Shown here: positions 13,845-63,918 of the stretch, piece by piece
How positions within the stretch are numbered: the stretch's first letter is position 1
Layout of the letters: the number at the start of each line of letters is the position of its first letter
Virus record (IMG/VR): IMGVR_UViG_3300031992_000063
Coordinates: 22,390 to 86,389 of that record
Length of the DNA stretch: 64,000 bases
Source: a virus
Taxonomy: Duplodnaviria; Heunggongvirae; Uroviricota; Caudoviricetes
Reading direction: 5' to 3' (one strand)
Position numbers and translations under genes: made by a program
Notes under the pieces: model-generated
The model's input: the letters and a program-made list of their open reading frames with translations, nothing else
What the model was told of the DNA's origin: nothing
Databases searched by the model: none

Positions 13845-15132
13845 TTTCTCCGATTAGATTATAAAGATGTATATGCGCGAAGACCCCGAAGCGACTTGTA
13901 GAAATATTACTTTTTAGGTAACGGATGATTGTTGCTTGAATTGTAGCTATTGCTATTAGACACACAAGGGTCATCGTATGATGAGTAAAGAAACCGCGAA
14001 AGAAATAGTAGATTTATTGTTTAAATTGTATGACGAAAACAATGAAGATACTGTCATAAATCATCATACATATGGTATTGTTTTGGACTTTATCGGCGGC
14101 GAACCATTTATGAATATTGATATCATATCTTTCGTTACTGAATACTTTATTCAGGAATGCGTTCGCCGCGACCATATTTGGCTTACTAATTTTCGTGTAT
14201 CTATGAGTTCCAATGGATTATTATATTTTGAGCCAAAAGTCTAGGAATACTTGCGTAAGTATAAAGACTTTGTTAGCTTAAATATAACAATTGATGGACC
14301 GAAAGAAATACATGATACTTGCCGCAAAGATTTTAGCGGCGAGGGTAGTTTTGATAGGTCAATAAAGGCATGGGAACATTGGTATCATGAGGTAAAGGTA
14401 AATATGCCAGATACAAAAGTAACGATTGCGCCCGAAAACCTATCCTAGCTTGAGTCAACATTTGATTTCTTTCTAGCCAATGGCTGTACTACTATTCACG
14501 CAAATCCAATCTTTGAGCATCCTTGGACTATTCGTGAGGCAAGTGAATATTATCATATATTAATTCGCCTTGCGGATAAACTATTAAAGGTTGAAGGCGC
14601 GGAAAGTTCCCTATTCTCCGACTTTAAAGGTAAGCCTTTGCCGCCAGAGGATACTAATAACTATTGCGGCGGCACTGCGGCAATGTTGGCTTTTGACCCA
14701 GATGGCAAAGCATATCCTTGCTTGCGCTATATGGCAAGTTCACTTTCACCAGAACGGGCGCCACTTGTAATTGGAGATACGCATGGAATATATAATACAC
14801 CAGAATACAAAGCAATATATGATGATATGAAGGCGGTAACGCGGCAATCGCAATCTTTACAAGAATGTTTAGATTGCCCTGTCGCATCCGGTTGTGCGTG
14901 GTGCTCGGCAGAAAACTACAATGAATTCGGCACCTATAACAAACGCTCTATTAACATATGTTGGATGCATCGCGCCGAAGCACTTGCGAATGTATATTAT
15001 TGGAATAAGTATTATAAATTACATAATATCAAAGATACATTCCCATTATATCTACCTAGAAATATAGCGGAAAAAATAATTACAAATCACGAATATAATG
15101 AGTTATATATATTATCACACTCTAATATTTGA
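13834..15132 (+). CDS. Radical SAM / SPASM-domain protein (anSME/peptide-maturase-like, about 432 aa) with 5 in-frame TAG
   Basis: ATG 13834 overlaps the upstream stop in an ATGA junction. Frame 1 is continuous through TAG at 13855, 13915, 13957, 14245 and 14446 to TGA at 15130-15132. CxxxCxxC = ...ITF(TAG)VTDDCCLNCSYCY(TAG)THKG. GGEP motif LDFIGGEPFMN. SPASM-like CGGTAAM...YPC and CLDCPVASGCAWCSAEN. Confidence 0.7.
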
Positions 15133-15157
15133 CTTTTGTAGAAATTTCTGCTATAAT
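15129..15157 (+). promoter_or_regulatory. Consensus promoter (TTGACT-17-TATAAT)
   Basis: Promoter family member. The rSAM gene's TGA stop lies inside AATATTTGACT. Confidence 0.55.
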
Positions 15158-15227
15158 ATATACAGAAAGTGGGTAAGGAACCAACTTTCTAAAAAATAAT
15201 TTTCATAACATAAGGAGGTTATGAGGT

Positions 15228-15566
15228 ATGAAGTATTATTCTGAAAAACTTCATAAGGTCTTTGACACCGTCGAAGCTTGTCAGCGTGCGGAGTTTGAAG
15301 AAAAGGAAAAGGAAAATCTTGAAAAAATCCAGAAGGAAAAGGCTCTAAGGGAAGCTAAGGAGCGCAAGGAAAAGGAAGCCGCAGAGCGTAAAGCTATGGC
15401 TGATAAGGTTGAGACTGCGCGCAAAGCTTATCTTGAAGCACAGAAAGCTTATAGGACTGAACTAGAAGCATTCTGCCAGAAGTATGGCACCTATCATTAT
15501 ACAGTGAGTGATGCCGATGAGGTTCCTTCTCTATTTGATGCTTTCAAGTATGCCTTTACTTGGTAA
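15228..15566 (+). CDS. Charged coiled-coil hypothetical protein (112 aa)
   Basis: ORF track entry. RBS AAGGAGG. Confidence 0.55.
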   Translation: MKYYSEKLHKVFDTVEACQRAEFEEKEKENLEKIQKEKALREAKERKEKEAAERKAMADKVETARKAYLEAQKAYRTELEAFCQKYGTYHYTVSDADEVPSLFDAFKYAFTW

Positions 15567-15605
15567 GTAAGGCTTAGGACTGAGCCTTATCAGTCCAACT
15601 TTCTT

Positions 15606-15694
15606 AGCCCCTTAGTTGAATGGCACAACAGCTGACTCTAAATCAGTAAGTGGGATTGACCCCGCGGGTGAGCGTTCGAGTCGCTCAGGGGCCG
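15606..15694 (+). tRNA. Candidate amber-suppressor tRNA, anticodon CUA (reads UAG); isotype undetermined
   Basis: Cloverleaf: AGCCCCT / TA / D stem GTTG-AATGGCA-CAAC / anticodon stem GCTGA, loop CTCTAAA (U33, CUA, A37), TCAGT / 22-nt variable region with GTGGG-ATTGAC-CCCGC helix / T arm GAGCG-TTCGAGT-CGCTC / AGGGGCC / G73. A1-C72 is unpaired. Confidence 0.6.
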
Positions 15695-15781
15695 CGTGGG
15701 AAGCGGACGGCTAGCTACCGAAACGAGATAAGGATGCCCTATCATCCAGCCAAATTTTATTTCTATAGGGAGGAATATAAA

Positions 15782-16450
15782 ATGACGGGATTTATCTATG
15801 TAATTACAAATGATGTAAATGGAAAGTAGTATGTTGGAAAAACTACTGATACTTTAGCCGGACGATTTAGTGACCATTGTAAAGATTCGGTTTTATCTAA
15901 ATGTAAAGGAAGACCTTTATATTATGCTATGAATAAATATGGGAAAGAACATTTTCATATTTCGTAGTTAGAAGAATGTGAACTAGATATTTTACCAGAA
16001 AGAGAATAGTTTTGGATAAAAGAATTAGATACTTATCATAATGGTTATAATGCCACTCTTGGAGGAGAAGGCAAGCAATATTATGATTATAATCTATTCG
16101 TTCAAGATTTTAATAATGGTATGAATATTAAAGAAATTGCTTAGAAATATCATTGTGGTACAGAAACAGTAAGCAAGGCTTTGCGAAAGGCGGGATTAGA
16201 TACTTTTCGCGGAAGTAAATATAATGCTCGTTCAAATAGGATTCCAATATTACAATTTTCGATGGATGATAATTTTTTACAGGAATTTGACTCAATTTGG
16301 ACAGCCGCTAAGTGGATAATGGAAAATCATTTTACCACCTCTACTAATCAAGGTCAAGTATAGAGTAATATTAGCGGAGCAGCGCGATAGATAGGATATA
16401 GAAAATCAGCATATGGATTTAAGTGGCGGCTAAAAGAAGAAGAAAATTAA
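15782..16450 (+). CDS. GIY-YIG homing endonuclease (I-TevI/Seg-like) with 6 in-frame TAG
   Basis: RBS GGGAGG followed by ATG 15782. GFIYVITNDVNGK(TAG)YVGKT...FHIS(TAG)LEECE...ERE(TAG)FWIKELDTYHNGYNATLGG, a C-terminal HTH (KEIA(TAG)KY...) and ...YGFKWRLKEEEN. Frame 2 is continuous to TAA at 16448-16450. Confidence 0.75.
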
Positions 16451-18006: not shown

Positions 18007-18082
18007 GACCCCTTAGTCCAACCAGGCAGCAGACAATAGACTTAAAATCTATCAAGTATGGGTTCGAATCCCATAGGGGTTA
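18007..18082 (+). tRNA. Class-I-shaped tRNA with Leu-type anticodon TAA (reads UUA/UUG); A73
   Basis: GACCCCT acceptor, anticodon arm ATAGA-CTTAAAA-TCTAT, 5-nt variable loop, ATGGG-TTCGAAT-CCCAT. Confidence 0.45.
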
Positions 18083-18960
18083 CTTGTCATAGGCAGGGAA
18101 GCACGATACCCTGACGTGCCCGGGTCACGAAAGCTACTGTGTGCTAGTGGATATGACATCGGCTGAAAAACGAGAAGGCATGGGAAAATAGATTGGTAGT
18201 CCCGGGCAGTTATTAGGGTAACTCCCTAAACTGCAGAGGAAGCGGCTTCATCTACCGCTCTCGTCACATAGTGTAGGCCGTTAGTCTCGGAGAGACCGAG
18301 GATAAATAAGCGAGGCCGCTCTGTGAAGCGGGTTGCGACGAGCAACCTCCGTGGATACACGACCCACGTAAAAAAGGTGCCGCGCTGATAGACCGCAAGT
18401 TCGCAATAGTCTATCATCTGGAGCAATGACAGGACTTTATGCGTGAAACTAAGCTCCTCGGCATCCTCACCAATTTGAGGGGAGAAATCCAAAAAATGGG
18501 ATGGAACGCATACGCTGAGTAAAACTGCGTAACAAAAAGAGAAAGTAAGACGCTCAATAATGGTCTACAAGAAGCGCAAACTGTATGGCTTTGCATGTGC
18601 CAGATTGCTCGGCGCTTAATAAAAGAGGAGCAAAGTAAGTGCTAGTATTCCATAAAATGGGAATGAATGGTTCTCATTGCTAGCAATTCGCCCAATATAG
18701 CTCAAAGGCGAGAGCAACGTTCGCGGAGATGCAGTTCGAGTCTGCTGAGGGCTTCGCGCGAATATATCGGCAACTGATATAATGATTAACAAGAAGTTGC
18801 GGCCGTATCTCAGGGTCGTTCTGGGAAGAGGGAAAATATTAGTTTTGGGTTGTAGGTTCGACCCCTACTACACTGGGCAAAGCGCTCGGTGTAATCGAGA
18901 GGAATACCATAAAACTAATACGGCTTAGCTAGCCTGACCTCGGTCAGCTTGATAGCTACA
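18083..18960 (+). ncRNA. About 880-nt structured non-coding region (unidentified large RNA candidate)
   Basis: No ORF longer than 90 aa on the + strand; only spurious minus-strand ORFs. Dense local helices. An RNase P P4-like GUCCCGGGC at about 18199. A tRNA-like fragment (GCUCAAAGGCGAGAGC D arm plus GCAG-UUCGAGU-CUGC T arm) at about 18690-18750. A T-arm-like GUAGG-UUCGACC-CCUAC at about 18845. Confidence 0.3.
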
Positions 18961-19864: not shown

Positions 19865-20028
19865 GGCCCTATAGCTCAGTTGGTAGAGCATGCGGCTGGT
19901 CAGAATAGCCAAGTAGTAAGGCATACCATCCCAAGAGAATTATTCTCGTAAGAAGGTAATCGCAAGTGCAATTCTTGCTTCTGGCGCCATTAACCGCAGT
20001 GTCGTAGGTTCAAGTCCTACTGGGGCCG
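19865..20028 (+). tRNA. Interrupted tRNA: canonical acceptor, D, T and anticodon stems with an about 91-nt structured insertion in the anticodon loop; anticodon undetermined
   Basis: GGCCCTA / TA / GCTC-AGTTGGTA-GAGC / A / TGCGG [98 nt] CCGCA / GTGTC / GTAGG-TTCAAGT-CCTAC / TGGGGCC / G. The insert contains nested helices GAGAA-TTA-TTCTC and GCAAG-TGCAATT-CTTGC. Confidence 0.5.
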
Positions 20029-21690: not shown

Positions 21691-22330
21691 ATTTAAAAAT
21701 AATGACACTTACAGCAACTTTTTGGAACAAGATTTTCTGTATAAAAATTTTATAAAGGTGTCATGATAGTTTAGACGCTTACAGCAACTATTTAATACAA
21801 TTTGTGCCATATTTTTACAAATAATATTGTGCGTCTAGATTTTTAGCCATTGCGAGGATAGTTGCCCGCAACATCCTACGTTTTATCATATGAAATGGCT
21901 CGCGCGATTGCTGACGGCAGTAGAGCGCGCGTTATAAATATCGGAACTTGCCGTTTCCTTGCCATACGGTGGTAGTTCCGTTCAAGGCAGAAAACCTGCG
22001 GTCCAGCTGGACGCGATGATGGCTAGTTTGGGGTTTTACGCCACGCTTTTAGGAAGCGCAACCCGCTAGAACGAGATTCTAGCACGCCTCTCCCTATCCC
22101 TATACGCCTCTTAACAATGCGCACCACATAGGGCATTCTGTTAGAGCCTTACACGCCTCTTAACAATGCGGACCAAGTAAGGACATTTAGTCTCGATTAG
22201 TAAAACTTGTATACCGGTTACCTCTAAGCTAAGTTACGAGTTATAGGCTTTAATAAATATAGGAGCAATGAGCGGCTACTTTGCTTAATATTCGGCCCGC
22301 TGACGAGCGTCTATGACAAATCCTATATTT
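21691..22330 (+). ncRNA. About 640-nt non-coding region with two pairs of direct repeats
   Basis: AC(A/G)CTTACAGCAACT(T/A)TTT at about 21705 and 21770. ACGCCTCTTAACAATGCG(C/G)ACCA at about 22105 and 22152. GC-rich hairpins such as CGCGCG...CGCGCG. Confidence 0.3.
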
Positions 22331-22332
22331 AT

Positions 22333-22411
22333 GCCCGAGTGGCGGAATGGCAGACGCGCCTGACTCAAAATCAGGTTCGTAAGAGTGTGGGTTCAAGTCC
22401 CACCCCGGGCA
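22333..22411 (+). tRNA. tRNA-Leu(CAA), class II
   Basis: Anticodon loop CTCAAAA, 11-nt variable arm, GTGGG-TTCAAGT-CCCAC, A73. Confidence 0.7.
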
Positions 22412-22429
22412 CTTTAAAGGAGTGATTAT

Positions 22430-25331: not shown

Positions 25332-25405
25332 GCCCGAGTAATCGAATTGGCATAGATATCTGGCTTAGAACCAGAGTTTTGTGGGTTCAACTCCCTCCTC
25401 GGGTA
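25332..25405 (+). tRNA. Class-I-shaped tRNA with Leu-type anticodon TAG (reads CUA/CUG); A73; acceptor identical to tRNA-Leu(CAA)
   Basis: GCCCGAG acceptor, anticodon arm TCTGG-CTTAGAA-CCAGA, 5-nt variable loop (GTTTT), GTGGG-TTCAACT-CCCTC. Confidence 0.45.
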
Positions 25406-25424
25406 CTTAATTTGGAGGTTAAAT

Positions 25425-29460: not shown

Positions 29461-29991
29461 ATGGCAACTTTATATATTCTATGCGGTCCCAGCGGATGCG
29501 GAAAAACTACTTGGGCGTGGAAATTTATGGGCGATGACATAGATGTCCGTTATGTTTCCCGCGATGAAATTCGTTTTAGTATGCTTAAAGAAGATGAAGA
29601 TTATTTTGCTCACGAGAAGGAAGTGTTCCGTAAGTTCGTAGGAACAATCGCGCAGACGCTTATTGATGACTTTGATGTAATTGCCGATGCTACTCATCTT
29701 ACAGAGGCTTCACGCAAAAAGCTTATTCGCGCAATTGATGAATATATCACGGACTATTCCATTACCTATGTAGTATTTTATACTCCAATTCAAAAGTGCT
29801 ATGAGAATGACGCTACTAGAACTGGAATAAGATATGTAGGAGAGCAGGTAATTCAAGGAATGTTCCGTTCCTTCAAGGCGCCGACTCTTAAAGAAGATTC
29901 TCGCGCAATTAAGATTATTGAAGTTGGAGAAGGAAAAGAAGATTTTTCCTATTTGATTGAACCTTATAGAAAGGAGTATGAAGATGACTAA
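29461..29991 (+). CDS. P-loop kinase (polynucleotide kinase-like, 176 aa)
   Basis: Walker A LYILCGPSGCGKTT. Adjacent to the phosphoesterase, mirroring the T4 Pnk domain pair. Confidence 0.55.
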   Translation: MATLYILCGPSGCGKTTWAWKFMGDDIDVRYVSRDEIRFSMLKEDEDYFAHEKEVFRKFVGTIAQTLIDDFDVIADATHLTEASRKKLIRAIDEYITDYSITYVVFYTPIQKCYENDATRTGIRYVGEQVIQGMFRSFKAPTLKEDSRAIKIIEVGEGKEDFSYLIEPYRKEYEDD

Positions 29992-30553
29992 TATTTGGCT
30001 TACATCGGATTTACACCTAATGCACTCTAAGTCCTTCCTTTGGGAACCTCGCGGCTTTTCTTCTACGGAAGAAATGTGCGAAGCTATCGTAGAAAGATGG
30101 AATTCGGTTGTTGATAAAGGAGATTTGGTATATAACCTTGGTGATATTGCGCTTTCAGATACAGATGCGGCAATTCCTTATCTTCAGCGGCTTAATGGTT
30201 ATCAGGTATGGCTTAGGGGCAACCACGATACTGATAATCGTGTAAATAAAGTGCTTGACGCTTGCCCCAACATTCATCTTCTTGGCACGCCTGACACTTC
30301 CTATGCTACTGTAATTAAATCGGGTAAGTGGCATTTTTATCTTTCTCACTATCCTACTTATACTTGTAATAATGAGCCTTGGCGCAAGGTAGCAAATCTT
30401 TGCGGCCATAGTCATACGCAGGATAAATGGGCAGATTGGGATAAAATGTGCTACCATGTAGAAATGGACGCGCATAATTGTTATCCAGTAAATCTGGAAG
30501 AAATTAAAAATGACATTTACGAGAAGCGTATTCAAGAGCAGACAAATATTTGA
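29957..30553 (+). CDS. Calcineurin-like metallophosphoesterase (198 aa)
   Basis: DLHLMH, GDIA, GNHD and GHSH motifs. Confidence 0.65.
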   Translation: MNLIERSMKMTNIWLTSDLHLMHSKSFLWEPRGFSSTEEMCEAIVERWNSVVDKGDLVYNLGDIALSDTDAAIPYLQRLNGYQVWLRGNHDTDNRVNKVLDACPNIHLLGTPDTSYATVIKSGKWHFYLSHYPTYTCNNEPWRKVANLCGHSHTQDKWADWDKMCYHVEMDAHNCYPVNLEEIKNDIYEKRIQEQTNI

Positions 30554-30577
30554 CTTCTACTGAAATTATAGTATAAT
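30550..30577 (+). promoter_or_regulatory. Consensus promoter (TTGACT-16-TATAAT)
   Basis: Promoter family member. The phosphoesterase gene's TGA lies inside AATATTTGACT. Confidence 0.55.
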
Positions 30578-30638
30578 ATATACATAAAGAAAAAACCTAC
30601 GGCCTTGTATAAGGCTAAGATGAAAAGGAGAAAATAAA

Positions 30639-32132
30639 ATGAGTGAATTTCTTAATGCGATGAAGAGCGAATTTAACTACGGCTATACTGAGAACGGCGG
30701 TATCAAGCATACTTCAACTTTGAATAGCGTGCTTGATATGTTTGCTATGGGTGGCTCTATGCGTAATCGTCCGGAAGAGGATATTATTCGTATGTTTAAG
30801 AAGGCATACGAAGAAGATGCTACTCTTGCTCTAAAGTGCCTCTTCTATCTGCGCGATTGCCGCGGCGGCCAGGGACAGCGTCGTTTCTTCCGCATCTGCT
30901 TCAAGTGGCTTGCTGACCATCACTGCGCTGAGGTGGTCCATCTAATTCCTTTTGTAGCAACCTACGGGCGCTATGATGACCTTTATACTCTGTTTGGTAC
31001 TGCTTGTCAGACCGATATGCTTGAATACTTTGAAAAGGTAATTAAGCAGAATGAGGACCATCTTGTATATAAGTGGCTTCCTTCTATCAATACTTCCTCT
31101 TACGAAACCCAGAAGCGCGGTCGTATCATCGCTACTTGGCTTGGTATGACTGAACGCCAGTATCGTAAGATGCTGTCTGAAGGCCGTAAGGCTTGTAAGC
31201 TTGTTGAAACTCTCATGAGCCAGCAGCGCTGGAATGAGATTGAATTTAATAAGCTACCCTCTCGCGCAGGTATTCTGTATAAGAAGGCGTTCATGCGCCG
31301 TGAAGAAACCAGAGAACGCTATGCTGCGTTTATGGATAGCAAGGAAACCAAGGTTAATGCTGGCGTGCTTAACCCCGTAGATATCGCACACCAGATTTTC
31401 AACAGCTACAATCCCTCTAAGACCGAACGAAAGGCTTGGGATAAGTATTGGGAATGTCTTCCCGACTACTACAACGGTCGCGAAGAGCCTGGCATTGCTG
31501 TTGTAGATGTTAGCGGCAGTATGTTTGGAACTCCTATAGAAGCGGCAGTCTCTCTTGGCGCTTATATCGCAGAACGCGGATATGGTCCTTTCAAGAACCA
31601 TTTCATTACTTTCAGCGGCAATCCCGAACTTATTGAGTTTAGTGGAATTGATTTGTATGATAAGTTTGTTCGCGCGCAGAGAGCAGACTGGGGCGGTAAT
31701 ACAAATATTGAGGCGGTTTTTGACCTGCTTCTAAATACCGCAATTAAGTCTCACATGTCAGCAGATAAGATGCCCAAGACTCTGTATATCTTCTCTGACA
31801 TGGAGTTTGACCACTGTATGACTTATGGCCCTGTTGTTTATGACCGTTGGGTTAGCGGTAATGCTATCATCGATGAAAAGCGGCTTCTTACTGTCATTGA
31901 AGCACAGGCAGAAAAGTGGACACGAAATGGCTATGAACTTCCTCGTGTAATCTTCTGGAACCTTAATGCTCGTCATGACAACATCCCCGCACTTGGTGGT
32001 AGATTCTCATATGTAAGTGGCTTCTCACCCGTTATGATTTCTACTATCCTTGGCGGCAAGGATGGATGGGACCTATGCCTTGAAAAGCTTAATAGTGATA
32101 GATACAGCGTAATTGCTAGTGTCTTAGTATAA
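30639..32132 (+). CDS. DUF2828-like protein with vWA/MIDAS domain (497 aa)
   Basis: MIDAS motif VVDVSGSM. Large helical N-terminal domain. Confidence 0.55.
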   Translation: MSEFLNAMKSEFNYGYTENGGIKHTSTLNSVLDMFAMGGSMRNRPEEDIIRMFKKAYEEDATLALKCLFYLRDCRGGQGQRRFFRICFKWLADHHCAEVVHLIPFVATYGRYDDLYTLFGTACQTDMLEYFEKVIKQNEDHLVYKWLPSINTSSYETQKRGRIIATWLGMTERQYRKMLSEGRKACKLVETLMSQQRWNEIEFNKLPSRAGILYKKAFMRREETRERYAAFMDSKETKVNAGVLNPVDIAHQIFNSYNPSKTERKAWDKYWECLPDYYNGREEPGIAVVDVSGSMFGTPIEAAVSLGAYIAERGYGPFKNHFITFSGNPELIEFSGIDLYDKFVRAQRADWGGNTNIEAVFDLLLNTAIKSHMSADKMPKTLYIFSDMEFDHCMTYGPVVYDRWVSGNAIIDEKRLLTVIEAQAEKWTRNGYELPRVIFWNLNARHDNIPALGGRFSYVSGFSPVMISTILGGKDGWDLCLEKLNSDRYSVIASVLV

Positions 32133-34715: not shown

Positions 34716-36092
34716 ATGAGCGTACATTGTGGTTATATTATTCAGGTAAAGGACCTTCGTCCGCATCCCAATGCTGACCGGCTTCAACTTCTTCATATAT
34801 TTGAGACCGATACTTGCGTTGGACTGGATGTAAAGGTTGGAGATATTGGCATGTATGTGCCTGCCGATATCAAGCTCGGAGAGCGTTTTTGTCAGGTAAA
34901 TGGACTTCTGCGGCAGAAAGATGAAAATGGAAACCCTATCGGAAATGGTTATCTTGACCCGCAGAAGCGTAATGTAAAGGCAATCAATCTGCGCGGACAG
35001 CGGTCGGATGGTATCTATCTACCTATCACTTCTCTAATGGATTTTTGTAAGATTTCCGACCTAAAGGTTGGCGACCAAATTACTGTTCTTAATGGTGAAA
35101 CCATTTGTGAGAAGTACATTCCGCGTGTTAATCCTGCTCGCGCCGGCTCTATGCCGCATCTTAAGGGAGTAAAGAAGAATATTTGTCCTCTGTTCGCAGA
35201 ACATGTAGAGACCGAGCAGCTTGCTTATAATCTTGATAAGTTTCATACTGGCGATATCGTACAGCTAACCCTCAAGATGCATGGTACCTCTCAGCGCACT
35301 GGTAATCTGCCAGTAATTCATGAACGCAAGCAGAACTTTATTCAGAAACTATTTCATCGTCCTGTAAAGACCTACACCGAATATGAAAACATTACCGGTA
35401 CTCGTCGTGTAGTTCTCGCGGGCGAACGCAAGGGTGGATTTTATGAAAGCGATGATTTTCGCTATGCTATGGCTGCTAAGTTTGACGGTAAACTTCCTCG
35501 CGGCATTACTGTCTACTATGAAGTGGTGGGTTTCCAGGGACCTAACGGCGCTTCAATTATGGGCCAAGTCGCTAATAGCAAGATTAAAGACAAGGCATTC
35601 GCACAGCAATACGGAGAAATGACTACCTTCTCTTATGGATGCGTACAAGACCATAAGTATGAAATGGAAGAACCTCTTGAGACTGGCGTATATCATCCTT
35701 GTTGCGAACTTTATGTTTATCGTATCACTATGACCAATGAAGATGGATTTGTAATGGAATTCTCTCCTGACCAGATTAAGCTTTGTTGCGAACAGTGGGG
35801 CGTAAATGTTGTTCCTGAATTTGAGCGCTTTATTATTCCTGACGGTGTAAATCCGGGAGAATATGTAGTGCGTAAGGTTGAAGAGTACTATGATGGCCCT
35901 GACCCTATCGGAAAGACTCATGTGCGTGAAGGCGTAGTTGCTCGTATTTGTAATCGGTCTAACTTTGCGGTGTATAAGCATAAGAACTTCTCCTTCAAGG
36001 TACTGGAAGGCATTGCGAAGGATGAAGCAGCCGCACCTGATATGGAAGAAGCGCAGGAAATTGTTGAGGAAGATAATAATGAATCAATGTGA
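34716..36092 (+). CDS. RNA ligase (Rnl2-like nucleotidyltransferase) with N-terminal tRNA-binding OB domain (458 aa)
   Basis: N-terminus GYIIQVKDLRPHPNADRLQLLHI...VGDIGMYVPADIKLG resembles the tRNA_bind/EMAP fold. Motif I KMHGTS = KxHG. Confidence 0.55.
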   Translation: MSVHCGYIIQVKDLRPHPNADRLQLLHIFETDTCVGLDVKVGDIGMYVPADIKLGERFCQVNGLLRQKDENGNPIGNGYLDPQKRNVKAINLRGQRSDGIYLPITSLMDFCKISDLKVGDQITVLNGETICEKYIPRVNPARAGSMPHLKGVKKNICPLFAEHVETEQLAYNLDKFHTGDIVQLTLKMHGTSQRTGNLPVIHERKQNFIQKLFHRPVKTYTEYENITGTRRVVLAGERKGGFYESDDFRYAMAAKFDGKLPRGITVYYEVVGFQGPNGASIMGQVANSKIKDKAFAQQYGEMTTFSYGCVQDHKYEMEEPLETGVYHPCCELYVYRITMTNEDGFVMEFSPDQIKLCCEQWGVNVVPEFERFIIPDGVNPGEYVVRKVEEYYDGPDPIGKTHVREGVVARICNRSNFAVYKHKNFSFKVLEGIAKDEAAAPDMEEAQEIVEEDNNESM

Positions 36093-45756: not shown

Positions 45757-46572
45757 ATGTGGAAAATTTATAAGCACACTTTTCCAAATGGAAAGATTTA
45801 TATAGGACAAACTAAAAAAAGTTTATTAGCACGTTTTCAAAATGGACGAGGATATAAGAGCTGTCCGTTAATGTAGCGAGCAATTGATAAGTATGGATGG
45901 GAAAATGTTACTACTGAATTATTAGAAGATAAAATCCCCACCTTGGAAGCCGCTAATGAAAGGGAATAGTATTATATAGAATTATATGACGCTACAAACC
46001 CAATGATTGGATATAATATTTCTCCAGGTGGAGGAATTCTTTCTATAATAGATTATGACGCTATTTATCAAGAATGGATAAGTCACCCAGAACTTGGAGT
46101 AAAGGCAATAGCCACCAAATTAAATTATGATAGAAATACTATTGCCCGAGCCTTAGATGCCTACGGAGTTGATATTGCTGATAGAATGTCGCGTGTAGCC
46201 TCTTCTATTAGTCAATCATAGCGTAAATATGACCGTACGGCAATTTATAATGCTTGGAAAATTACACCAGATTATAAAACCCTTATGAAACAATTTAATT
46301 GCTCGGTAGATACCATTAGAAGGGCTCTTAAGGAAAATAATGTTTCAGAACAAGAAAGGCGCACTTTTGGCTAGCTTAATCAATAGGGATGCAATCGTAA
46401 AAAAATTAATCAGTATGATCTAAATGGAAACTTTATACAAACTTTCAATAGTATAGCAGAAGCTAACCTTTCATTAGGCAAGCAACCAAATTCTTCTAAT
46501 ATTATAAGCGCATGTAAAGGAAGACGTAAAACTGCCTATGGTTATAAATGGGCTTATTCAGAAAACATTTGA
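45757..46572 (+). CDS. GIY-YIG homing endonuclease, second copy (about 271 aa), with 5 in-frame TAG
   Basis: RBS GAGGAG followed by ATG 45757. KIYKHTFPNGKIYIGQTK...CPLM(TAG)RAIDKYGWE...ERE(TAG)YYIELYDATNPMIGYNISPGG, a C-terminal NUMOD-like DNA-binding region and ...YGYKWAYSENI. Ends TGA at 46570-46572. Confidence 0.7.
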
Positions 46573-47772: not shown

Positions 47773-48219
47773 ATGAACGATATTATTCATTTACAATTAA
47801 ACAACTGGTTTTCTGGGCGCGATTATCCATCAGAAGAACCGTTCATTTATTGGATTTCAAATAATAAATTCTGCGATGATGAATGGTGTAAGGAAAATCA
47901 GCTCTGCGTAAATGCCGCATACCTTGATGCTTCAATTAACTGGTGTATTGCGGCACCGCGTGCTTGGGTAGAAGAACATTGTCCTATTATTCTATCTGAA
48001 GGTAATTTTACTTATTTTACACAGCAATCTTATTGGAATGATGAAATAGATAAAGCAGAATGGAAAACAATCCAGCATGTTAAGTGGTATTCTGAATTTA
48101 TCGTACGCGGAAATGAAGGACGGTGGGGTACTCACTTTCCAGAATATAAAGAAGAAAATTATGGTGTTCATTGGGAAGTAGAAGATGAAGATGGACATTA
48201 TTATGTAGAAGGAGACTAA
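47773..48219 (+). CDS. Hypothetical protein (148 aa)
   Basis: ORF track entry. Confidence 0.5.
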   Translation: MNDIIHLQLNNWFSGRDYPSEEPFIYWISNNKFCDDEWCKENQLCVNAAYLDASINWCIAAPRAWVEEHCPIILSEGNFTYFTQQSYWNDEIDKAEWKTIQHVKWYSEFIVRGNEGRWGTHFPEYKEENYGVHWEVEDEDGHYYVEGD

Positions 48220-50090: not shown

Positions 50091-50426
50091 ATGAAAATGG
50101 GTTTGGATATTTATATTTTCAAAGCTCGTACCAAGAAAGCATTTGAGGCCGATAATTGGTATAATTCCGATGCAGTACAAGAAGTATATTATGCTAGAAA
50201 ATTCTGGGACCTTCTAAGCGCAGCGTCATTCATTGATATAAATAATGATTGCGGCGAATATCTTGAACTTTCGCGCGAAAATGTTGAAGAACTGATTGAA
50301 ATTGCTACCCATAATGAAGATTATTTTGGTGGCTTTGAGACAGTACCTCGCTTATGCGAGATTCTGCGAGATTTTGAAGAAACCGAAGAAAACGGCTATC
50401 ATTATTATATGGAGTTTGATTACTAA
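50091..50426 (+). CDS. Hypothetical protein (111 aa)
   Basis: ORF track entry. RBS AAGGAGA. Confidence 0.5.
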   Translation: MKMGLDIYIFKARTKKAFEADNWYNSDAVQEVYYARKFWDLLSAASFIDINNDCGEYLELSRENVEELIEIATHNEDYFGGFETVPRLCEILRDFEETEENGYHYYMEFDY

Positions 50427-50905
50427 TGACATTTAAAGATTGTGCTAAATATTATCCCCTTGATTATACTTATGTTGGAGATTATAGTTTAAACGAAACT
50501 TATACGAAGGACCAGCTTGATTCAGATACGATTGCTGAGGCGCTTGAATGGAATGATGAGAGCGCAATCCCGTTTATCGTATATGATGCTGCCACACAAA
50601 AATTTGAGAATTGGTATTATGCTTTTTGGTGTGTAAAAGGTTATCTTAATGAAACCTATGAAATGGATGGATTTTATCCAGCAACGAATAGTGAGTCTTT
50701 TGGATGGGAAAAAGTAGACCCAAATAGCATTATTTACGCACCAGACGATGAACTCGCAAATGAATTGGGCTTCGGGCCGGATATGGGAAAAAATGATGAT
50801 TTTCGGCGCGAACAGGTTGCGTATGGATTTGATGTAGAAGCTTATACAAACGGAACCATCTTTACTACTCGTGAAAAACTAGAAAAATTTTTAAGTGAAG
50901 AATAA
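50426..50905 (+). CDS. Hypothetical acidic protein (159 aa)
   Basis: ORF track entry. Confidence 0.5.
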   Translation: MTFKDCAKYYPLDYTYVGDYSLNETYTKDQLDSDTIAEALEWNDESAIPFIVYDAATQKFENWYYAFWCVKGYLNETYEMDGFYPATNSESFGWEKVDPNSIIYAPDDELANELGFGPDMGKNDDFRREQVAYGFDVEAYTNGTIFTTREKLEKFLSEE

Positions 50906-56208: not shown

Positions 56209-56724
56209 ATGAAAACTGGACTTTGCGGATTATATAGATTTAAAAATAAGCAAGGTGAAATTATTTATATTGGTAAGGCTGATGATATTCATAAACGATT
56301 AAAAGGGCATAAACATCTTGAACCAGAACAATATCAAGAGGTATCAACTATTGAATATGCTATAGTTAATAATAAAGCAGATAGAGATATTATAGAGACT
56401 ATGTTAATTTCACAAATTAATCCCAAATATAATACAACACAAAAGTATACAGAACAAGCAAGTTTAATAATAGATGGAGAGATAATGCTTTTATGGCAAA
56501 AAGTTGATCCCAAAGAATATAATTTTCAAGCAAAGAAAAAAGAACATAGAGGCACAGGAGTACAAGGTCGTCCACGTATAGAAGTACCACCATTATTTTA
56601 CGAGTTATATCCTAAATGGAAAAATGGTGAAATAACAGCCACTGCTATGGCAAAAGAAGTTGGTTTAACTCACTGTACATTTTATCGTCGTGTAAAAGAA
56701 TATGAAGCTACTTTAAATAAGTAA
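56209..56724 (+). CDS. GIY-YIG nuclease with C-terminal HTH (171 aa), AT-rich, no TAG
   Basis: GLYRFKNKQGEIIYIGKADDIHKRLKGH...ETMLISQINPKYNT. C-terminal ...ITATAMAKEVGLTHCTFYRRVKEY. Confidence 0.65.
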   Translation: MKTGLCGLYRFKNKQGEIIYIGKADDIHKRLKGHKHLEPEQYQEVSTIEYAIVNNKADRDIIETMLISQINPKYNTTQKYTEQASLIIDGEIMLLWQKVDPKEYNFQAKKKEHRGTGVQGRPRIEVPPLFYELYPKWKNGEITATAMAKEVGLTHCTFYRRVKEYEATLNK

Positions 56725-56758: not shown

Positions 56759-57928
56759 TTGAGAATAATTAAGATGGATAATAAATATTACGTTTACAAA
56801 TATTATATTAATGACCAATTATTATATGTAGGACGAACTAATAACTTTATAGAACGATTTAAACAGCATTTGCGGGAAAATTCAGAATATAATAAAGTAA
56901 CTAGAATTGATATAGCCACTTTTGATTTAGATGGCGATATGATGTTATATGAAAAATATTATATTACGAAATTTCATCCGCCTTTAAATAAGAAGGATAT
57001 GCAATTTTCTAGTCCATCTTTTAAATTACCTGAACCTGAATGGATAAGTTATACTAGAGAAGAATTTGATAATATTTCCTCTCAATATAAAAAAAATAAC
57101 TATGGAAAACTCGTAGAAAACAAAATTAAATTATCAAAAATTATTCTCCCAGATAATACAGTTAAAATTCCTGGTAATATCCCGTTATCTTGGTTTAAAC
57201 AGTTTGATATGAATACACAAGTATTTAATTATAATGAAAAATATAGTATTTATTTTACAAGTGCCTATGATACTGCTACACCAAAAGAACAGAAAAAGAT
57301 GTATAAATGGGATAAAAATGAGATAATTAATTACTGGTGTTTAATAGCAGAAAATAAATTAGATAAAATTCCTTATATTAAAGATTATCCATATGATGCT
57401 CCAACATTAAATTTAACAATTAAAAAAAATAATTCTGACATAATGTATTGTTCTTTAGATTGGTTCAGAATCACTTTGGATAAAAATCAAGGATTTTATT
57501 ATTTTGGGCCATATTTTAAAAATAAAATTATTAGTGAAGATGGTATATTTAATATTGAAAAAGAAATTCAAGAGTATGAAATAATAGAACTATTTCATAC
57601 ACCAACAGTATCAAAAGTTTTAAAAGATGCATTGGGTAATGATGAGATTGAAGTAAAAAAAATTCTTTCTTGGAATATATTATATGTATCGTATAAAAAC
57701 AATATAATAGATACTGCCATTATTAAAATAAATTTCTTATCTACTGAAGATGATGAAACAATATTTGAAAATAATTTATTAATTATTAATCAAGAAGAGA
57801 TTTCAGATTCCGATCATATGATAGCACAAAATTATGCTCCTTGTGGTGTTTTAAGAAAATATAAAAATACTTTTATTCGTGATAAATATTTTGAAAAACT
57901 ATTAATTGACAATTCTCTAAATTTATGA
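56759..57928 (+). CDS. GIY-YIG domain protein (389 aa), very AT-rich
   Basis: YVYKYYINDQLLYVGRTNNFIERFKQH...EKYYITKFHPPLNKKD. Confidence 0.6.
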   Translation: MRIIKMDNKYYVYKYYINDQLLYVGRTNNFIERFKQHLRENSEYNKVTRIDIATFDLDGDMMLYEKYYITKFHPPLNKKDMQFSSPSFKLPEPEWISYTREEFDNISSQYKKNNYGKLVENKIKLSKIILPDNTVKIPGNIPLSWFKQFDMNTQVFNYNEKYSIYFTSAYDTATPKEQKKMYKWDKNEIINYWCLIAENKLDKIPYIKDYPYDAPTLNLTIKKNNSDIMYCSLDWFRITLDKNQGFYYFGPYFKNKIISEDGIFNIEKEIQEYEIIELFHTPTVSKVLKDALGNDEIEVKKILSWNILYVSYKNNIIDTAIIKINFLSTEDDETIFENNLLIINQEEISDSDHMIAQNYAPCGVLRKYKNTFIRDKYFEKLLIDNSLNL

Positions 57929-63021: not shown

Positions 63022-63918
63022 ATGAAAAGTATTGGTATTCAGTCAAAGAATCAGATGAATCTAGTTGGTAAGCTTCTAAATGTTGATTTTGGAGAGGGCA
63101 AGCTCTCTGATGGTCGTGAATATAAGCGCGCGACCGTAACAATTCGTGTAACTCAGCCAGTTGATGGTAAGGAAGAGACAAGCGAAATTCCGGTAGGTTT
63201 CTTCGCTACACCTTATACTTCTACTGGTAAGCAGAATCCGGCTTACAAGTCTCTTCTAGACCTACAGAATCTGAAGACGGCACAGAATGTTGGTATTGAT
63301 GCCGCAGACCAGGTTCGTATTACAAGTGGCGTTCTAAGTGAAAATAACTTTGTATCTCGTAGCGGTAATCTTATTACCGGTTGGCAGATTCGCGGTTCTT
63401 TCATTAATGCCGCAAAGATGGCAGATATTGCCTCATTTGTAACTGAAATTTTCATCATTGATATGCATGATGAAGAGGATAGAAATGGTGAACCTACTGG
63501 TCGTCTCGTAGTTCGCGGCGGCGTGGTTCAGTATAATAGCAAGCTAGATGTTATTGACTTTATTGTTGAAGCACCTGACAAGGTTGAATTTATTTCTCGT
63601 AATTGGGAAAATGGTACAACTGTTACAGTTAAGGGTCGTGTTCGTGTAACTTCTCATGAGACTGAAAGTTCTAGTGAGAGCAGTAGCTGGGGCGAAGATA
63701 TTCCCGATACCACGACTACTTTCGTTCGTGAGCTAATTATCACTGGTGGCGACGATGGTCCTAAGGATGAGGAATTTAGTTATGACCCTGCGGAAATCAA
63801 GAAGGCATTCAATCAGCGTAAGGCTGCGATTGAGCAGATGCAGATTGATGCTCGTGCTCGTACGAGCAAGCAGGGTGGTAGTAACCAGACTAGCGCAAAG
63901 AAGTATGATTGGGAGTAA
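63022..63918 (+). CDS. Single-stranded DNA-binding protein-like (OB folds, acidic C-terminus), 298 aa
   Basis: Acidic tail ...DDGPKDEEFSYDP. Placed next to replication genes. Confidence 0.45.
   Translation: MKSIGIQSKNQMNLVGKLLNVDFGEGKLSDGREYKRATVTIRVTQPVDGKEETSEIPVGFFATPYTSTGKQNPAYKSLLDLQNLKTAQNVGIDAADQVRITSGVLSENNFVSRSGNLITGWQIRGSFINAAKMADIASFVTEIFIIDMHDEEDRNGEPTGRLVVRGGVVQYNSKLDVIDFIVEAPDKVEFISRNWENGTTVTVKGRVRVTSHETESSSESSSWGEDIPDTTTTFVRELIITGGDDGPKDEEFSYDPAEIKKAFNQRKAAIEQMQIDARARTSKQGGSNQTSAKKYDWE

Follow-up and report, generated by a model that had tools for sequence, protein, structure and literature searches.

In a 64,000-nucleotide (nt) stretch of DNA from a Caudoviricetes phage (positions 22,390 to 86,389 of the IMG/VR record IMGVR_UViG_3300031992_000063; hereafter the window, with 1-based coordinates), the segment 15606-15694 is a genuine phage transfer RNA (tRNA) gene, under purifying selection, with the anticodon CUA. 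The phage uses TAG as a sense codon for glutamine (Gln) and, judging from the sequence evidence, we consider it very probable that this tRNA is a functional UAG-to-Gln suppressor. The molecule presents five arms: its body seems to come from a bacterial tRNA-Trp, and the additional arm, inserted in the variable region, shows a loop that resembles the anticodon of tRNA-Gln. The viral loci to which the window was compared, from IMG/VR or other sources, are designated by L-numbers (L016, L027 and so on). The parts of the tRNA are the following:

15606..15694, + strand: amber-suppressor tRNA with anticodon CUA and five arms, 89 nt up to the discriminator, according to ARAGORN, Rfam, the minimum free energy (MFE) fold and covariation
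15606..15612, + strand: 5' strand of the acceptor stem (AGCCCCU), partner of 15687-15693 (AGGGGCC)
15615..15629, + strand: D arm, with a stem of 4 base pairs (bp; GUUG/CAAC), a 7-nt loop (AAUGGCA), G18 and G19 present, and G10 at 15615
15631..15647, + strand: anticodon arm GCUGA-CUCUAAA-UCAGU, with the anticodon CUA at 15638-15640, U33 and A37
15650..15665, + strand: extra arm in the variable region, with stem GUGGG/CCCGC and loop AUUGAC, followed by unpaired GGGU (15666-15669)
15670..15686, + strand: T arm GAGCG-UUCGAGU-CGCUC, all 5 pairs of which covary

ARAGORN placed a tRNA of 90 nt, with the anticodon CTA, at 15606-15695, and the Rfam tRNA model (RF00005) matched 15606-15694 with 51.7 bits (E=3e-8, gathering score 29). 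When the 89 nt are folded alone, the MFE structure is a five-arm cloverleaf too, with -32.6 kcal/mol and a z-score of -2.2 relative to shuffled sequences. A first-pass annotation, made by reading the sequence alone, had proposed a tRNA cloverleaf with the 7-nt loop CUCUAAA (U33, CUA, A37) at this place, to be checked with ARAGORN and Infernal and against other folds lacking that loop. The three approaches agree on the proposed structure: ARAGORN finds the CUA tRNA, Infernal matches it through RF00005, and the MFE fold is that same cloverleaf. The anatomy had also been described accurately, with a 4-bp D stem (GUUG/CAAC), a 7-nt D loop and a variable region of 22 nt (AAGUGGGAUUGACCCCGCGGGU) containing a 5-bp helix (GUGGG/CCCGC). 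The same is true of the acceptor end, where A1.C72 is unpaired, positions G2-C71 through U7-A66 are paired, and the discriminator, at 15694, is G73. U8 and A9 are present, and the CCA end is not encoded in the gene. All the canonical traits of an elongator tRNA are found here, namely a 7-bp acceptor stem, a 5-bp T stem, U8, G18G19, U33, a purine at position 37 and UUCRA in the T loop.

Across 40 aligned homologs, compensatory changes affect every pair of the acceptor stem (7) and of the T stem (5), as well as 3 of the 4 pairs in the D stem. The proportion of paired cells in this alignment is 89.5%, compared to 62.3% in shuffled alignments, with none of 500 shuffles reaching the observed value; sliding the helix partners gives 51% at most. 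The anticodon loop CUCUAAA is identical in 40 of 40 homologs. Among the 20 tRNA genes of the window (19 detected by ARAGORN, plus one at 19865-20028 found by Rfam alone), neither program showed a second one with a CUA anticodon, as the first-pass annotation had stated. Its proposal of an amber suppressor is supported by this result and by the recoding of TAG in the window.

With TAG read as sense, one long frame reaches 1225 codons and holds 19 TAGs, and further long frames hold 9, 14 and 19, while most of the other genes in the window contain none. In total, the open reading frames (ORFs) listed in the two TAG-containing groups hold 85 in-frame TAGs, and none of the 60 ORFs counted uses TAG as terminator. 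To assign a residue to this codon, we aligned the orthologs of the window and 27 related IMG/VR loci, translated with TAG as X. Opposite the TAGs of the window, 45 of the 132 cells without TAG hold Gln (34%), against a background of 2.8%, which represents an enrichment of approximately 12-fold. In the reverse direction, Gln was found opposite the TAGs of the relatives in 51 of 172 cells (30%). In these ortholog alignments Ser, Tyr, Leu and Trp appear at or below background, with counts of 6, 4, 10 and 1 out of 132, respectively, and 2 out of 172 for Trp in the reverse direction; we discarded them as meanings of TAG, given this lack of enrichment. In the PhoH-like protein, one of the three TAGs aligns with a Gln of PDB 3b85, the sole solved structure matched, and the remaining two align with Asp and Ala.

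CAG is found at 5.1-5.7 per 1000 codons in TAG-containing genes, compared to 17.4 in TAG-free genes, and the sum of TAG, CAG and CAA reaches 32.7 per 1000 in the structural block, 30.1 in TAG-free genes and 47.2 in the other TAG-containing ORFs. Since Gln is enriched opposite TAG, CAG is depleted in the genes that contain TAG and no ORF ends in TAG, we conclude that TAG is a sense codon for Gln, as in the 'code 15' already described for recoded phages. The Gln-type identity features that the first-pass annotation read from the acceptor end agree with the alignment of TAG to Gln, with the replacement of CAG by TAG and with the pattern at 1:72, G73, G2 and G10 across the family described below. 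No aminoacyl-tRNA synthetase or release factor was found in the scanned window ORFs of at least 140 amino acids (47773-48219, 50426-50905 and 63022-63918 lie outside the scan).

We collected relatives of the tRNA by scanning IMG/VR for exact matches to two anticodon-arm sequences, and added loci fetched via a structural protein. This yielded 79 CUA tRNAs, of which 54 are unique, including 44 unique long ones (86-96 nt). For the statistics on the acceptor stem we used 42 unique members, after removing the class II-like CUA tRNAs of L018 and L076. Hence, at least 42 distinct sequences form a family in rumen and gut phages, phAss-1 included. The 1:72 position is occupied by U-A in 16 members, A.C in 10, A-U in 7, U.U in 5, G.U in 3 and U.G in one, and never by G-C or C-G in any of the 42. 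N73 is G in 40 of 42, 2:71 is G-C or G.U in 40 of 42 (with G2 in 40 of 42), and G10 is invariant (42/42); 3:70 is C-G in 27 and G-C in 15. The tRNA of L027 is an exact copy of the one in the window, and that of L016 shares its 5' half, has a compensated T arm and presents A1-U72 in place of A1.C72. In L033-L039, L041 and L056, the long CUA tRNA is syntenic, directly following the recoded structural block.

Beyond these loci, two adjacent CUA tRNAs, one short and one long, are annotated as tRNA-Sup-CTA in phAss-1 (OQ749652), and the long one is identical to the family member in L060. INPHARED holds no close relative of the locus or of the window tRNA; the other subfamily has a single match there, phAss-1. 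A scan of bacterial genomes with the anticodon arm gave 29 matches, two of them true long CUA tRNAs, both on phage-like contigs of metagenome-assembled genomes. The matches in rumen Clostridia were discarded as a link to the host, being chance matches inside coding sequence and not spacers of clustered regularly interspaced short palindromic repeats (CRISPR). The strong Shine-Dalgarno sites and the promoter of sigma-70 type, together with the prediction of Clostridia for phAss-1, give no more than a hint of Bacillota as host. We also observed two CUA tRNAs close together in L001, L026, L028, L060, L072, L080, L084, L091, L092 and phAss-1 (L131, 1410-1575). In these pairs the long partner is five-armed and the short one is a class I tRNA of 73-78 nt, with U1.C72, G73 and an acceptor beginning UGGGG; the short CUA tRNAs have no match in E. 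coli.

The origin of the body was seen most clearly in L056, the best-preserved member. Without the extra arm, this tRNA is 87-88% identical to the annotated tRNA-Trp in 5426 of 5426 complete E. coli genomes. Direct alignment with the E. coli tRNA-Trp gave 64 identities in 72 positions, with a single insertion of 18-19 nt just 3' of the anticodon stem and CUA where tRNA-Trp has CCA (C35 to U). The remnant of the Trp variable loop (GGU-GUU) persists 3' of the insertion. The window tRNA is tied to this family by synteny and by L016 and L019, the latter of which unites the acceptor stem of L056, the anticodon stem of the window and a near-identical extra arm. By these alignments, the body of the family is derived from a bacterial tRNA-Trp through the change of CCA to CUA and the insertion of a hairpin of ~18 nt. 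The Trp anticodon CCA and Trp decoding are absent from the window tRNA, which has CUA, and Trp is not enriched opposite TAG. The hybrid architecture reported by the first-pass annotation is therefore real, and kept across the family, but not in the sense intended: by its apparent ancestry the window tRNA is no class I/class II chimera, but belongs to class I and to the lineage of tRNA-Trp, with a hairpin of ~18 nt added by insertion. Its A1/G73 end is inherited from tRNA-Trp, and suits glutaminyl-tRNA synthetase (GlnRS) because the identity sets of tRNA-Trp and tRNA-Gln are neighbours.

Of the 44 long CUA tRNAs, 41 have YUGA (YTGA in DNA) in the loop of their inserted arm, a Gln anticodon motif that the first-pass annotation had overlooked. 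As a control, we looked for YUGA anywhere in the variable region of 42 long tRNAs of other kinds (mainly Ser, Leu and Tyr) encoded on these contigs and found it in three. In the larger subfamily the loop reads CUCUGAA, CUUUGAA, CUCUGAC or UUUUGAU, which corresponds to C32-U33-[Y34-U35-G36]-A37-N38. The tRNA-Gln(UUG/CUG) genes of these same phages have anticodon loops CUUUGAC, CUCUGAA, CUCUGAC and CUUUGAA, so that heptamers match between both sets. Compared to the true anticodon loop, CUCUAAA, the sole difference is a G for A at '36'; variation in the arm loop is confined to C/U at '34' and A/C at '38', and real tRNA-Gln loops vary likewise.

Given that several rows were shifted in the MAFFT alignment, we compared the arm, as well as the upstream element described below, by motif-anchored tabulation. 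In the register that gives a 7-nt loop, each of the 26 unique sequences has Watson-Crick pairs at both closing positions, the second of which covaries (C-G in 17, G-C in 4, U-A in 4 and A-U in one). The stems thus differ between members and covary, with the loop motif being kept, and 3-4 unpaired nt follow the arm. The arm of the window, GUGGG-AUUGAC-CCCGC, folds on its own with -8.0 kcal/mol, and its loop holds UUGA (the Gln anticodon UUG plus A), with U-G-A at 15657-15659. One member of the family had been called by tRNAscan-SE as 'Gln CTG, pseudo, 31.5 bits' (Kienbeck et al. 2024, supplementary file 3), a call in which the second hairpin was read as the anticodon arm.

Inserted variable-region arms are also found in other class I-type tRNAs: an Ile-UAU of 92 nt in L082 (2437-2528; loop CUCACAA, U1.U72 and A73), a His-GUG of 86 nt in L088 (527-612) and a Lys-UUU of 84 nt in L104 (3829-3912). 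Their arm loops do not match their own anticodons, and the Gln pattern does not obviously generalise.

According to a review, the identity elements of GlnRS are 1-72, 3-70, N73, 10-25, U35 and G36. The same review indicates that G36 aids both binding and recognition, that an open 1:72 pair favours this enzyme, that the Gln-inserting amber suppressors selected from tRNA-Asn all have a destabilised 1-72 pair, and that an amber tRNA-Ser with its long arm kept was made a Gln acceptor by acceptor-stem changes alone. From this set, the window tRNA presents the open 1:72, G73, G10-C25 and U35; at 2:71 and 3:70 it has G2-C71 and C3-G70. In the mechanism that we propose, the tRNA would be transcribed, probably from a promoter at 15129 and through a regulated terminator, and then matured, with CCA added post-transcriptionally. 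The host GlnRS would charge it with Gln in the way known for su+7, an amber suppressor made from E. coli tRNA-Trp, since U35, G73, G10 and the open 1:72 fit the enzyme. The charged tRNA would then decode UAG in the recoded structural genes and in the other genes containing TAG. As for the extra arm, it would most likely secure Gln identity. It could do so by displaying to the synthetase the U35-G36 signature, no longer present in the decoding arm, and might in addition keep out TrpRS or other enzymes. We put forward this role of the arm, as an identity element read as a Gln anticodon, as a tentative suggestion. About as tentative is the idea that the identity anticodon (the arm with YUG-A, read by GlnRS or another factor) would be physically split from the decoding anticodon CUA. 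A switch can be imagined in which the extra arm, and not the CUA arm, stacks beneath the D stem, the CUA arm then reading UAG on the ribosome. Taking suppression and arm-borne identity together as one explanation, we lean slightly in its favour.

Several observations weigh against this explanation or parts of it. Regarding ancestry, the window tRNA itself shares only 48 of 69 positions (70%) with the E. coli tRNA-Trp and gives no BLAST match, identity to phage-encoded tRNAs singles out no isotype, and its presumed descent from tRNA-Trp rests on the continuity of the family. Regarding charging, C3-G70 departs from the E. coli GlnRS set (G3-C70), although the enzyme of the host may differ, and the anticodon has A36 and not the G36 of that set; the presence of GlnRS in the host is itself assumed. 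Regarding the arm, its loop has 6 nt in the window and 4-8 nt in the subfamily, which keeps YUGA but not the full geometry of an anticodon loop, and with canonical docking the anticodon-binding domain of GlnRS should be out of reach for an arm of 5 bp placed in the variable region. Finally, short CUA tRNAs lacking the arm coexist in several of these phages; therefore, the arm is not indispensable for amber suppression.

One could argue that the tRNA is a functional UAG-to-Gln suppressor whose arm has no identity role, being a tolerated insertion such as the relic of a duplicated anticodon arm, and that charging uses only U35, G73, G10 and the open 1:72. The conversion of su+7, amber tRNA-Ser and amber tRNA-Asn into Gln acceptors by changes in the anticodon or acceptor only, with no added arm, is consistent with this view, as are the arm-less short CUA tRNAs in the same phages and the variable size of the arm loop in the subfamily of the window. 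However, YUGA is kept in 41 of 44 sequences although the stems diverge and covary, the variation allowed in the loop is that of true tRNA-Gln loops, and a neutral relic would not be expected to keep G36 over such divergence, so we find a tolerated insertion unlikely. Long variable arms are antideterminants in other systems, and the arm might likewise be a negative or protective element, blocking TrpRS (the ancestral synthetase), LysRS or other enzymes attracted by CUA suppressors, or acting as a decoy or shield against anticodon nucleases of the host and tRNA-targeting defences. A tRNA-Trp-like body does make discrimination against TrpRS a real problem, and the end-healing and sealing genes of the window hint at tRNA damage and repair during infection. 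Yet a steric block needs no conserved loop resembling the Gln anticodon, and nothing links the motif to a nuclease, which makes a protective arm, in our opinion, quite unlikely.

The remaining alternatives question suppression itself or the amino acid inserted. If the YUG hairpin were the true anticodon arm and the CUA hairpin the insertion, we would be dealing with a plain tRNA-Gln or a pseudogene, as the tRNAscan-SE call for one member implies; the second hairpin of the main subfamily, with its 7-nt loop CUYUGAA and 3-6 bp stem, would allow it. But in the window and its subfamily that loop has 4-8 nt and so cannot decode, and in the alignment each base of the CUA arm has its counterpart in the anticodon arm of tRNA-Trp, leaving the other hairpin as the insertion. 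Moreover, CUCUAAA is invariant, Infernal and ARAGORN both pick the CUA arm, and these genomes require a UAG decoder with no other CUA tRNA available, all of which renders this arrangement very improbable. The long arm, G73 and G2-C71 belong to the Ser identity set of E. coli. The window tRNA has the three of them, and allo-tRNAs are known to be charged by SerRS, so insertion of Ser (or Leu/Tyr) at UAG was also considered. It is hardly credible in view of the absence of enrichment of these residues opposite TAG, the class I D arm, the 3-4 unpaired nt after the extra arm and the tRNA-Trp-like body. We likewise rejected a class II tRNA, on account of the class I D arm (4 bp, 7-nt loop), the arm inserted in a Trp-like body and the lack of Ser, Leu or Tyr enrichment, and an allo-tRNA, which is defined by acceptor/T stems of 8/4 or 9/3 (8+4 or 9+3 bp), whereas covariation upholds a 7/5 configuration. 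ARAGORN labels 15606-15695 as a pyrrolysine tRNA, a label that it gives automatically to CUA anticodons. The CUA anticodon and G73 are all that the two share: tRNA-Pyl is marked by G1:C72, 6 bp in the anticodon stem, 3 nt in the variable loop and D and T loops that are both atypical, while the window tRNA has a 22-nt variable region, a 5-bp anticodon stem, A.C at 1:72 and standard G18G19 and UUCGA. No pyl genes were found among the scanned window ORFs, and we give this possibility practically no credence.

The region upstream of the tRNA contains the following elements:

15129..15157, + strand: candidate sigma-70-type promoter, TTGACT-17-TATAAT with an extended -10 TG, 11 of 12 consensus matches
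15162..15224, + strand: cow-rumen-4 RNA (Rfam RF02948; 63.8 bits, gathering score 48.5), within the leader 5' of the small ORF
15228..15566, + strand: small Lys/Glu-rich ORF of 112 amino acids, located between promoter and tRNA, with neither a TAG nor a Pfam family
15568..15596, + strand: two-state RNA element, 2 nt past the stop codon of the ORF and 10 nt before the tRNA

The promoter at 15129, from which the first-pass annotation had the tRNA expressed, is borne out as sequence by its 11 matches to the 12 consensus positions, and it plausibly drives a unit that runs through ORF 15228-15566 and ends in the tRNA. A TATAAT is also present 20-35 nt upstream of the tRNA in L016, L011, L061, L088 and L094. 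The loop of the second hairpin of cow-rumen-4 contains the Shine-Dalgarno sequence AAGGAGG. In L016, a similar promoter and the first hairpin stand immediately before the tRNA, with no ORF between them.

The element between the ORF and the tRNA can form two helices, S1 (UAAGGCU/AGCCUUA, 15568-15574 with 15583-15589) and S2 (GGACUGA/UCAGUCC, 15577-15583 with 15590-15596), the latter being followed by a U-rich tail. Both covary across 12 loci, with connecting loops of 0-4 nt, and they are mutually exclusive because of these short loops and of the shared A15583. S2 and its U-rich tail constitute the only terminator-like site in the region. This looks like a candidate anti-terminator/terminator switch that would gate read-through into the suppressor tRNA, perhaps coupled to translation, and it would be well suited to a genetic code that is changed at a given time. 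Rfam searches of 15100-15900 with E-values up to 10 gave no match for the 5' or 3' flanking elements.

On the 3' side, 15697-15752 is a structured element of the form UGGGAAGC-hairpin-ACGAGAUAAGGA-hairpin-AGCCA, whose hairpins covary. We found it only downstream of long CUA tRNAs (6 loci), whose 3' ends lie at varying distances from it. It extends into the ribosome-binding site of the next gene, a GIY-YIG endonuclease, and it has no Rfam match; it may be the leader of that downstream gene. A distinct element recurs 3' of the CUA tRNAs in L056, L041, L070, L035, L033, L011 and L066, and consists of a long hairpin (TCGNCNC...GNGNCGA) around UACAGCAA plus ~50 AU-rich nt. Phage tRNAs processed by theta ribozymes are followed by a minimal ribozyme like that of hepatitis delta virus (HDV), which starts at most 5 nt from the tRNA 3' end. 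A rebuilt descriptor of this ribozyme detected its positive control and gave no match in the window or in the viral loci L001-L101, so we rejected it, and Rfam gave no HDV match near the tRNA.

Elsewhere in the window, the tRNA at 19865-20028 (Rfam, 51.6 bits), missed by ARAGORN in its default mode, has an insertion of 91-95 nt in the anticodon loop and is a Thr-GGU with an intron according to the intron mode of the program. Three tRNAs with Leu anticodons (18007-18083, 22333-22412 and 25332-25406) are just 75-80 nt in size, without the long variable arm usual in bacterial tRNA-Leu, and many 'Leu' tRNAs of the related loci are likewise 75-78 nt. Within the tRNA array, at 22098-22134, there is an abiF RNA motif (Rfam, 37.9 bits, for a gathering score of 37). 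Four genes resemble GIY-YIG homing endonucleases: 15783-16450 (6 TAGs), 45757-46572 (5 TAGs), 56209-56724 and 56774-57928 (both with none). A set for RNA end-healing and sealing occupies 29461-32132 and 34716-36092, and comprises, besides a DUF2828/DUF7788 protein:

29461..29991: AAA_33 kinase
29978..30553: metallophosphoesterase
34716..36092: RNA ligase (weak PF09414 match)

This set recalls the systems that repair tRNA, as well as the RNA ligase whose enrichment in tRNA-rich recoded phages has been reported.

Amber suppressor tRNAs in phages that read TAG as Gln were already known; the arm, its motif and the Trp origin appear to be new. The five-arm design, the YUGA motif and the origin from tRNA-Trp are not mentioned in the openly searchable literature, including the phAss-1 paper, the survey of Borges et al., the theta-ribozyme paper and a review on non-canonical tRNAs (subscription-only papers lie outside this search). 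Surveys find suppressor tRNAs in only ~40% of TAG-recoded phages, and the misfiling of tRNAs like this one by standard tools (ARAGORN, 'tRNA-Pyl'; tRNAscan-SE, 'Gln CTG pseudo') may contribute to that detection rate. How a CUA tRNA could be reliably charged with Gln by a host that reads UAG as stop is a question raised in the papers of the field. The tRNA described here suggests a testable answer in two parts, in which phages would have re-invented the su+7 trick and added an arm bearing the signature of the Gln anticodon. If the arm were read by the synthetase, a surrogate for the anticodon would lie outside the anticodon arm, which would be a new principle in tRNA identity and of direct use in engineering suppressor tRNAs. 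The arm would then be a natural fix for those anticodon changes that destroy recognition by the synthetase, and a template for the design of orthogonal suppressor tRNAs.

With other code 15 phages (crAss-like, Lak and phAss-1), the window shares the CUA tRNA, the use of TAG as Gln, the location of in-frame TAGs mostly in structural or late genes, and the absence of a phage aminoacyl-tRNA synthetase (for the window, in the ORFs scanned), so that the host enzyme is presumed to act. The difference is that the searchable papers describe those molecules only as suppressor tRNAs with a predicted Gln isotype. Suppressors of the supE type, a tRNA-Gln with CUA, also insert Gln at UAG and have a weak 1:72 and G73, but they have the body of tRNA-Gln and a short variable loop, while the phage tRNA is Trp-like, with C3-G70 for G3-C70. 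Regarding the class II tRNAs (Ser, Leu and Tyr), the likeness is a helical arm in the variable region, and the amber tRNA-Ser offers a precedent for GlnRS accepting a long-arm CUA tRNA once the acceptor end is right. Unlike them, the phage tRNA has a class I D arm, 3-4 unpaired nt after the arm, an inserted arm and a conserved loop. The operator of E. coli thrS is an anticodon-arm mimic bound by the synthetase. An anticodon-like hairpin loop can also be recognised by its cognate synthetase in the yeast HisRS mRNA element, as reported in PMC6542539, and PMC7590224 reports engineered tRNAs whose variable arm tolerates a grafted functional hairpin. These examples are found in mRNAs or are man-made, while the phage arm is located inside a natural decoding tRNA and its recognition by GlnRS is hypothetical.

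In body, anticodon change and acceptor end, the phage family resembles su+7. This suppressor differs from its parent by a single C35-to-U change, has a weak 1:72 pair and G73, and is read by GlnRS. It is, according to a review that cites the finding, an E. coli tRNA-Trp made amber suppressor and charged with Gln. The phage family has in common with it the tRNA-Trp body, the C35-to-U change, the weak 1:72, G73 and the reading of UAG as Gln. It differs in being natural and used genome-wide, in a 1:72 position that is often fully mismatched, in an identity that goes down to 70% in the window copy, and in the arm of ~18 nt with its loop resembling the Gln anticodon. By this comparison of sequences, the phage family is a natural counterpart of su+7 plus an insertion of ~18 nt.

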